This document shows, in pieces, positions 42,956 to 45,240 of a DNA stretch of 64,000 nt. The translations under genes were made by a program, and so were the position numbers. Origin of the DNA: Escherichia coli (GTDB lineage: Bacteria; Pseudomonadota; Gammaproteobacteria; Enterobacterales; Enterobacteriaceae); NCBI RefSeq assembly GCF_003334405.1, contig NZ_QOWM01000014.1. One strand, 5' to 3'. The notes beneath the pieces are model-generated. The model was not told where the DNA came from and ran no database searches. It saw nothing but the letters and a program-made list of their open reading frames with translations. Every line of letters begins with the position of its first letter. Position 1 is the stretch's first letter.

Positions 42956-43140
42956 AATGCATGCTCTCAGAGAAAATTATTAGCAGAAGTATAACCACGA
43001 AGACCTTTATTCAGAAGGGAAAGTCCGTTCCAAACCCACCAGTCCTGTGCAAAAATTAACCATTTGATATGCAAATTGCATAACATGCCAGCAAATTCCA
43101 GGAATTTTCCTAACATCGCCAGCGCGGCATTAAGATTACA

Positions 43141-43180
43141 GATATAAAAGCAAAACGCCACGTAAACACGTGGCGTTTTT
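43141..43180 (-). terminator. rho-independent terminator downstream of rho
   Basis: Hairpin aaaacgccacgtgtttacgtggcgtttt with T-runs on both strands, 15 to 50 bp after the rho stop. Confidence 0.7.
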
Positions 43181-43194
43181 GGCATAAGACAAAT

Positions 43195-44454
43195 TTATGA
43201 GCGTTTCATCATTTCGAAGAAATCGTCATTGGTCTTGGTCATTGCCAGTTTATTAATGAGGAATTCCATTGCATCGATTTCGCCCATCGGGTGAATGATT
43301 TTGCGCAGGATCCACATTTTCTGCAGTTCTTCCTGAGTCGTGAGCAGCTCTTCTTTACGGGTACCAGAACGGTTGTAGTCGATAGCCGGGAAGACGCGTT
43401 TTTCAGCGATCTTACGAGAGAGGTGCAGTTCCATGTTGCCTGTACCTTTAAACTCTTCGTAGATAACTTCGTCCATTTTAGAACCGGTATCGATAAGCGC
43501 CGTCGCGATAATGGTCAGGCTGCCGCCCTCTTCCACGTTACGCGCCGCACCAAAGAAGCGTTTCGGACGATGCAGGGCGTTGGCATCCACACCACCGGTC
43601 AACACTTTACCTGACGCCGGAACAACGGTGTTGTAAGCGCGCGCCAGACGAGTGATGGAGTCGAGCAGAATGATAACGTCTTTCTTGTGCTCAACCAGGC
43701 GTTTGGCCTTCTCGATCACCATTTCCGCAACCTGAACGTGGCGAGATGCGGGTTCGTCAAAGGTAGAAGCAACAACTTCACCTTTTACCAGACGCTGCAT
43801 CTCGGTTACTTCTTCCGGACGTTCGTCGATCAGCAGAACCATCAGCACACAATCCGGGTGGTTGTAAGCAATGCTCTGAGCAATGTTCTGCAGCAGCATG
43901 GTTTTACCGGCTTTCGGCGGTGCCACAATCAGACCACGCTGACCACGACCGATAGGTGATGCCAGATCCAGTACGCGAGCAGTTAAATCTTCAGTAGAAC
44001 CGTTACCACGTTCCATACGCAGACGAGAGTTTGCGTGCAGCGGGGTTAAGTTCTCAAAGAGGATTTTGTTGCGGGCGTTTTCAGGTTTGTCGAAGTTAAC
44101 TTCGTTAACTTTCAGCAGCGCAAAATAGCGTTCACCTTCTTTCGGCGGGCGAATCTTACCAGAGATGGTATCACCAGTGCGGAGGTTGAAACGGCGGATT
44201 TGGCTAGGGGAAACGTAGATGTCATCAGGACCGGCGAGGTAGGAGCTGTCTGCGGAACGGAGGAAACCAAATCCATCCTGCAATATCTCCAGTACGCCAT
44301 CACCAAAGATATCTTCGCCACTCTTTGCGTGCTGCTTCAGGATGGCAAAAATAATGTCCTGCTTACGCATACGAGCCAGGTTTTCCAGCCCCATATTTTC
44401 GCCGAGAGTGATCAGCTCAGAAACCGGCGTATTCTTTAATTCGGTAAGATTCAT
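43195..44454 (-). CDS. rho: transcription termination factor Rho
   Basis: Track ORF 43195..44526; the recognised 419-aa Rho starts [19 protein letters not shown] at the internal ATG. Confidence 0.95.
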
Positions 44455-44538
44455 AGTGGTGTGAGTTCTTAAACTTGGGGTAAATCTCGAACTTAATGTT
44501 GTGAATGGTATGGCAGGATCATCCATGCCTGTTTACGG

Positions 44539-44640
44539 TCATCGACTCATGTCTTTTCGCTGCCTGGTCACAGGAGAGTACGCAGAACTGAAACGACAAG
44601 ACGGATTGAGTGACGAGCCAGAAATCTGTTCACTTCGCAT
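44539..44640 (-). CDS. rhoL: rho operon leader peptide
   Basis: Hand translation of the minus strand gives MRSEQISGSSLNPSCRFSSAYSPVTRQRKDMSR-stop (33 aa), matching the leader peptide as I recall it. Confidence 0.75.
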   Translation of the reverse strand: MRSEQISGSSLNPSCRFSSAYSPVTRQRKDMSR

Positions 44641-44780
44641 TTAAGATAAAACGGGAAGCGTTGGAAATTACAAGATTCAAACTTAATAAGGTATGTTTAA
44701 TACGAAGTCAACACTAAGTTAGCATGACTCACGCCGGGCGTCCAGTTTTTAGCGACGGGGCACCCGAACATGAAATTCCC

Positions 44781-45110
44781 TTACGCCAGGTTAGCGTCGA
44801 GGAACTCTTTCAACTGACCTTTAGACAGTGCACCCACTTTGGTTGCCGCCACTTCACCGTTTTTGAACAGCAGCAGAGTCGGGATACCACGGATGCCATA
44901 TTTCGGCGCAGTGCCAGGGTTTTGATCGATGTTCAGTTTTGCAACGGTCAGTTTGCCCTGATATTCGTCAGCGATTTCATCCAGAATCGGGGCGATCATT
45001 TTGCACGGACCGCACCACTCTGCCCAGAAATCGACGAGGATCGCCCCGTCCGCTTTGAGTACATCCGTGTCAAAACTGTCGTCAGTCAGGTGAATAATTT
45101 TATCGCTCAT
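44781..45110 (-). CDS. trxA: thioredoxin 1
   Basis: Track ORF 44781..45215; the recognised 109-aa TrxA starts [13 protein letters not shown] with the WCGPC active site. Confidence 0.95.
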
Positions 45111-45240
45111 ATATAACTCCACAGGAATAAGCCTGGCGTGTTGGTTTCGTTGTTGGTGTAACATTAACCAACTAAAGGTTGACTTTATTTCACCGGATAC
45201 GCTTTCGTAAAGCAATAGTAAGCTGATATTCTACCACACT

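Follow-up and report, generated by a model that had tools for sequence, protein, structure and literature searches.

Between trxA and rho in Escherichia coli lies a long spacer that carries the annotated leader peptide gene rhoL and a C-rich stretch, and the question raised by this locus is whether it attenuates rho expression and, if so, whether the rhoL peptide or the leader RNA is the element that matters. Rho is responsible for terminating much of the transcription in bacteria, and the feedback loop at the rho leader keeps the level of Rho steady, which makes it a biologically important element. We place a probability of roughly 0.9 on the reading that the locus is the known rho leader of E. 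coli, an attenuator that depends on Rho and provides negative feedback on its synthesis. The comparative data suggest that the element under selection in this leader is probably the RNA.

Layout of the trxA-rho spacer

The window analyzed here is a 64-kb stretch of E. coli DNA in which trxA, rhoL, and rho all lie on the minus strand, which the initial annotation left unmentioned; its figure of about 325 bp for the gap between trxA and rho agrees with the 326 bp observed, and its coordinates were right (Table 1). The locus is the same as the E. coli K-12 rhoL-rho attenuator and does not differ from it in sequence or annotation; the window merely shows the opposite strand, as the reverse complement of K-12. 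Over 1916 nt, from trxA to the end of rho, the sequence matches E. coli K-12 MG1655 exactly (100%), and the MG1655 annotation has rhoL (b3782) and rho (b3783) at the corresponding positions. RefSeq places rhoL identically in strain E2865 and in MG1655. A 651-nt query across the spacer was matched in 5426 of 5426 complete E. coli genomes, at 99% identity or more in 5380 of them; the leader itself was at least 99% identical in 5379 of the 5426 and 100% identical in 36 of 40 evenly sampled rows; among the matches listed for these genomes, the rhoL annotation was present throughout.

Table 1. Features of the trxA-rho region and their positions in the 64-kb window
Feature	Position	Strand	Basis
rhlB	45241..46506	+	Gene layout
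trxA CDS (thioredoxin 1), upstream neighbor of rho	44781..45110	-	ORF and translation; RefSeq annotation of E2865 and MG1655
trxA-rho spacer, 326 bp	44455..44780	-	trxA stop at 44781..44783, rho ATG at 44454
trxA 3'-end hairpin without a U tract	44725..44775	-	Fold of -20.3 kcal/mol, z = -2.4
Candidate rho promoter: -35 TGGACG (44744..44739), 17-bp spacer, -10 TAACTT (44721..44716)	44716..44744	-	Read by eye, with conservation
rho leader RNA, ~255 nt if the start is 44709	44455..44709	-	MG1655 identity; putative start
rhoL ORF, 33 codons plus stop, annotated rho operon leader peptide	44539..44640	-	Translation, RefSeq, NCBIfam
Published RNA 3' end inside rhoL (nt 91-92)	44549..44550	-	Term-seq, MG1655 3966322, 95 nt upstream of rho
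C-rich, G-poor tract, likely rut core, best-conserved leader part	44455..44538	-	Composition, conservation
rho CDS, 419 aa	43195..44454	-	ORF and annotation
Bicyclomycin-sensitive termination zone, rho +50 to +87	44367..44404	-	PMC7815308, mapped via exact MG1655 identity
Second C-rich, G-poor stretch, within the rho ORF (+190 to +290)	44164..44267	-	78-nt windows with C 38-42%, G 17%

The 33-codon rhoL reported in the initial annotation was confirmed as an ATG ORF encoding the exact RhoL sequence, MRSEQISGSSLNPSCRFSSAYSPVTRQRKDMSR. The product matches the NCBIfam model NF007433, "rho operon leader peptide RhoL," over residues 1-33 of 33 with 95.2 bits against a cutoff of 85. On the plus strand, the spacer ORFs (47 and 35 aa) are short, begin with GTG, and are without support. 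A covariance-model scan of 43000..45400 with Rfam 15 returned no match at E <= 1 for the leader (44455..44780). Close by, the only real hit was that of the trxA 5' UTR (45081..45180, minus strand) to RF02773 TrxA_thermometer, a known RNA-thermometer family (78.8 bits against a gathering score of 58; E = 3.5e-13).

The upstream part of the spacer is occupied by the trxA 3' end and a candidate promoter for rho. Published Term-seq 3' ends of trxA at MG1655 positions 3966142 and 3966145 correspond to window positions 44729 and 44726, at the base of the trxA 3' hairpin (PMC7815308). In the candidate rho promoter, a TG (44724..44723) stands one base upstream of the -10 hexamer, and both CTGGACGCCCG and TGCTAA.TTA are invariant in 11 Enterobacteriaceae. 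A second promoter candidate reads TTGACT (44711..44706) and TATTAA (44688..44683). The consensus promoter scan of 44300..45300 called no promoter, the candidate rho promoter included. From the placement of this candidate, transcription of rho would start near 44709 and give a leader of 255 nt, with ~44676 as the other candidate start; the leader length obtained from mapping of the rho start in the 1980s reportedly agrees with this value. The 3' arm of the trxA hairpin overlaps the candidate rho -35 hexamer, and trxA termination and rho initiation would therefore share DNA. In the Salmonella-type locus (L084:783..880), an inverted-repeat insertion of about 85 nt, absent in E. coli, follows directly on the trxA stop and stretches the trxA-rho spacer to 418 bp.

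Rho-dependent termination and the C-rich tract before rho

Termination and Rho binding at this leader have been demonstrated in the literature, and Rho-dependent autogenous attenuation of rho, as put forward in the initial annotation, is established for the identical sequence by bicyclomycin (BCM)-sensitive 3' ends, chromatin immunoprecipitation (ChIP), and H-SELEX. Adams et al. 2021 applied Term-seq and DirectRNA-seq with and without BCM (PMC7815308). [quoted passage not shown] The peak of the Rho termination region, at 3966504 (window 44367, rho +87), has a Rho score of 7.82 with p = 1.3e-215, the reads upstream and downstream of it numbering 1310 and 297 without BCM and 1345 and 2386 with BCM (PMC7815308). 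In a rho R66S mutant, the ChIP signal of RNA polymerase rose 12-fold inside rho when normalized to the rhoL region (PMC12121999), and a similar result was obtained in PMC5499598. With H-SELEX, a Rut peak spanning some 160 nt was mapped to the rho 5' UTR (PMC9499579), and autoregulation via leader attenuation is stated in reviews (PMC6582626).

The initial annotation had proposed Term-seq with BCM as its check on the leader. Sensitive 3' ends do appear in the published data, but they lie inside the rho ORF, at +50 and +87, and the published mapping reports no BCM-sensitive 3' end within 44455..44780. Such a location would be expected of Rho that loaded on the C-rich tract and caught up with the polymerase 60-150 nt further on. 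A consensus scan of 44300..45300 found neither an intrinsic terminator nor a terminator/antiterminator pair on either strand.

Between the rhoL stop and the rho ATG lie 84 nt with a base composition of 28.6% C and 14.3% G. Of the 78-nt windows, the best (44436..44513, minus strand) holds 21 C and 7 G; with both strands of the 64-kb window counted, 0.09% of windows of this length reach such a C/G ratio, and the composition of the tract thus exceeds chance. When folded, the 84-nt tract forms two small predicted hairpins (-13.7 kcal/mol, z = -1.9) and is about half single-stranded. The description of this stretch as C-rich and unstructured therefore stands for its composition and in part for its structure. 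The exact boundaries of the rut site are putative.

We compared 80 gammaproteobacterial rho loci together with the Salmonella-type locus and an Enterobacter cloacae-complex locus. Of the 80 gammaproteobacterial loci, 73 reach a C/G ratio of 1.5 or more in the 84 nt immediately preceding the rho ATG, whereas none of the 80 does so over the first 252 nt of rho or over the whole locus. In most of these 80 loci, trxA lies upstream of rho. The nucleotide sequence of the ~85 nt preceding rho is conserved throughout Enterobacterales, Yersinia and Photorhabdus included; outside this order, only the C>G skew and a CACCAnnATG motif are retained. The sequence CACCAYTATG before the rho start (44455..44474, minus strand) is kept even in Aeromonas and Vibrio. 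The skew is lost or weak (C/G < 1.5) in the insect symbionts Candidatus Pantoea edessiphila (L014) and Candidatus Lightella (L017), and in the Pantoea sp. Brub MAG (L016) C makes up just 15%, with C/G at about 1.5. Rho autoregulation may have decayed in such reduced insect-symbiont genomes.

Inside rho, the second C-rich, G-poor stretch has a best 78-nt window of 33 C and 13 G, which ranks among the top 0.3% for the 64-kb window, and could possibly be a further internal rut or Rho loading site or an attenuator element. We also considered a 24-codon N-terminal extension of rho from the in-frame ATG at 44526 (443 versus 419 aa), which was rejected on the basis of 1- to 2-nt indels that break the frame in three relatives. 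The ATG at 44526 is invariant in 11 Enterobacteriaceae, with no stop between it and rho.

A mechanism can be proposed in which transcription would begin just past the trxA 3' hairpin, probably near 44709, and produce a leader whose last ~85 nt form a C-rich, G-poor tract, predicted to be largely single-stranded and untranslated. Rho hexamers would load on this tract, in keeping with the published Rut peak. When Rho is abundant, RNA polymerase would be released in the first 50-90 nt of the rho ORF, and when Rho is scarce, the polymerase would read through and more Rho would be made. The rho gene is itself without a recognizable Shine-Dalgarno sequence (anti-Shine-Dalgarno duplex of -1.4 kcal/mol versus -5.9 for trxA), which would presumably slow ribosome coupling or loading and so give Rho time to act.

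The rhoL ORF across Enterobacteriaceae

Among the Enterobacteriaceae compared, the ATG of rhoL is restricted to E. coli and E. albertii. The triplet aligned to it is GCG in both Citrobacter and ACG in Salmonella, and ATG, GTG, and TTG are all absent from the aligned start site in the four Enterobacter loci and Superficieibacter. Missing starts, indels, or shifted stops were found at rhoL in nine other Enterobacteriaceae, with Citrobacter, Salmonella, Enterobacter, Superficieibacter, and Klebsiella-like relatives lacking either the start or an intact frame. Frame-breaking indels of 1 to 6 nt occur in C. werkmanii, Superficieibacter, Enterobacter BIGb0383, E. cloacae, Klebsiella BIGb0407, and Enterobacter Ag1, and the position of the rhoL stop codon shifts between relatives. 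The variable sites of rhoL fall on the three codon phases as 8, 11, and 12 (34 sites each), which amounts to no periodicity; for the same species, the initial 450 nt of rho give counts of 5, 3, and 73 (150 sites each). The sites that vary among seven species make up 30% of rhoL, 12% of the downstream tract, and 49% of rho third codon positions. In the 108-member cluster of RhoL at 90% identity, the 15 members listed (40 read, all named) are Escherichia or Shigella.

Superficieibacter has TGG at the position of the E. coli rhoL stop (TGA), and a T-to-A change also removes the next in-frame stop, which is TAA in Citrobacter. With both stops lost, the rhoL frame in this genus continues into the frame of the 44526 ATG and into rho.

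Because the start, frame, stop, codon phase, and cluster membership of rhoL are unlike those of a conserved gene, selection on this leader probably acts on the nucleic acid and not on a peptide, with RNA as the conserved core. The ~255 nt of the leader are more conserved than the synonymous sites of rho. On these comparisons, rhoL is an Escherichia-specific ORF laid over a leader RNA whose nucleotide sequence is conserved; the ORF would be dispensable for the conserved mechanism, and its regulatory importance is doubtful. The link between the rhoL peptide and attenuation that the initial annotation implied is therefore unsupported, given that the ORF is Escherichia-specific in the comparative data.

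Alternative readings and known attenuators

The lone published 3' end within the leader lies at window 44549 (MG1655 3966322) and is listed for two of the three growth conditions tabulated in supplementary file 1 (PMC7815308). If transcription starts at 44709, the leader fragment bounded by this end would be about 160 nt long. The 3' end sits on the descending arm of a long hairpin predicted over rhoL, which RNAalifold drew as long and imperfect in 11 Enterobacteriaceae. One tentative reading takes the "rhoL leader peptide" to be an annotation artefact of one genus and the RNA to be the selected element, with the rhoL-region hairpin and the ~160-nt fragment having a role at the RNA level, either in trans (as a Rho decoy or SraL partner) or in cis (as a pause or loading platform); translation of rhoL would then be a recent, possibly Mg2+-responsive add-on in Escherichia. 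We consider this conceivable but unlikely.

A narrower proposal is that the conserved 5' part of the leader acts mainly in trans, the ~160-nt fragment ending at rhoL nt 91-92 being a stable sRNA that would act as a decoy for Rho or, with sRNAs such as SraL, as a partner or sponge. We regard it as unlikely. It would be consistent with the discrete Term-seq 3' end at 44549, although both the stability and the function of such a fragment are hypothetical. Nucleotide conservation independent of codon phase would also fit, but a cis function alone can account for that conservation. The multicopy rhoL fragment weakens Rho-influenced termination elsewhere, including that of sRNAs (PMC9765468), an effect that we read as titration of Rho, and other 5'UTR fragments act as sponges (Adams 2021, PMC7815308). 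In Salmonella, the sRNA SraL pairs with the rho leader and antiterminates, according to reviews (PMC6582626). In the E. coli leader, a 30x30-nt local scan found no pairing site for SraL (RyjA), the best duplex (-22.8 kcal/mol) being at the level of shuffled targets (mean -23.9). SraL regulation of the Salmonella rho leader was reportedly described by Silva in 2019. Structure predictions also speak against the trans-acting fragment: in single-sequence folds, neither the whole leader (z = -1.3) nor rhoL (z = 0.06) is better than shuffles, and only the trxA 3' hairpin beats them. The RNAalifold hairpin is without covariation support, with a covariation term of +1.58, mostly invariant pairs, and double changes in 5 of 70 pairs.

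A regulatory role for the peptide is a further candidate, and we judge it quite unlikely. Here rhoL would be a true regulatory leader peptide, with ribosome occupancy or stalling on it gating the loading of Rho, as in tnaC or toiL/topAI, and translation would be integral to rho control. Its leader-peptide annotation, its match to NF007433, and the near invariance of the ORF within E. coli all favor this role, but the confinement of its ATG to Escherichia, the frame-breaking indels in at least five relatives, the variable stop, and the flat codon-phase counts argue against it. The length of the ORF alone shows no excess over chance, given that, among dinucleotide-preserving shuffles, an ATG ORF of at least 33 codons arose in 22% of those made from the 255-nt leader and in 38% of those made from the 326-nt spacer. 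No Shine-Dalgarno sequence precedes rhoL (anti-Shine-Dalgarno duplex of +1.2 kcal/mol versus -2.4 as the median over every ATG in the window), which is weak evidence because rho is without one too. Translation does probably initiate at rhoL in E. coli, since rhoL is among the start sites detected by retapamulin ribosome profiling (Ribo-RET) and induced at least 3-fold in low Mg2+ (PMC11429745), and the Mg2+-responsive signal may point to a lineage-specific regulatory role. However, the rhoL stop lies 84 nt upstream of rho, and translation of rhoL is therefore unable to shield the C-rich rut tract, which is exposed regardless. Tetracycline had no significant effect on rho termination and relieved the upstream ORF (uORF)-controlled topAI in the same experiment (PMC12121999), and the spacer has no terminator/antiterminator pair. 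Phenotypes have been published for a rhoL deletion and for an IS2 insertion, but the leader RNA was disrupted as well; the deletion, the insertion, and the multicopy clone each alter the leader RNA or Rho dosage besides the ORF.

The idea that the spacer owes its length merely to the trxA terminator and rho promoter that it must accommodate, and that its ORF and C-rich stretch are incidental and without function, would suit the first ~70 bp (filled by the trxA 3' hairpin and the promoter-like element) and the unremarkable ORF length, but it is very improbable in light of the conservation of the remaining ~255 nt above rho synonymous sites, the extreme-tail composition with its skew kept in 73 of 80 loci, and the published BCM and rho-mutant data that refute it, with ChIP and H-SELEX also showing function.

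The E. coli rho leader is said to have been characterized as an autogenous attenuator by Barik in 1985 and by Matsumoto in 1986. The attenuator has thus been known since the mid-1980s, and it has been re-measured genome-wide several times, by Bastet 2017, Adams 2021 (PMC7815308), Delaleau 2022, and Baniulyte & Wade 2025. The Salmonella rho leader is orthologous and aligns closely from the CTGGACGCCCG block to the rho ATG, the last ~85 nt being near-identical, and it undergoes Rho-dependent premature termination that is counteracted by SraL, according to reviews; it differs in the ACG that replaces the rhoL ATG, leaving no rhoL ORF, and in the inverted-repeat insertion of about 85 nt after trxA. 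The uORF-controlled attenuators tnaC-tnaA, toiL-topAI, and mgtL/corL resemble the rho leader in having a short ORF, a long leader, and an untranslated stretch for Rho loading. In those systems, ribosome stalling on the uORF sets the access of Rho, whereas rhoL is unconserved outside one genus and tetracycline leaves rho termination unchanged. Like rhoL, the short leader ORFs trpL, hisL, thrL, and pheL are annotated as leader peptides, but the rho leader has no intrinsic terminator, no terminator/antiterminator alternative, and no run of regulatory codons, and its termination, unlike that of the trpL type, is factor dependent and takes place inside the downstream ORF.

In summary, the sole new point is of modest added value: to judge from the comparison of loci, the rhoL ORF exists only in Escherichia (including Shigella), and the RNA around it is conserved far more widely. 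The literature treats deletions, insertions, and multicopy clones of "rhoL" as lesions of a leader peptide, and the comparative data point instead to the RNA, chiefly its last ~85 nt. If the conserved unit is the RNA, the phenotypes of rhoL mutants would therefore be best read as effects on the leader RNA or on Rho dosage, unless point mutants of the start codon differ. What is gained from the rhoL comparison bears on annotation and on experimental design.
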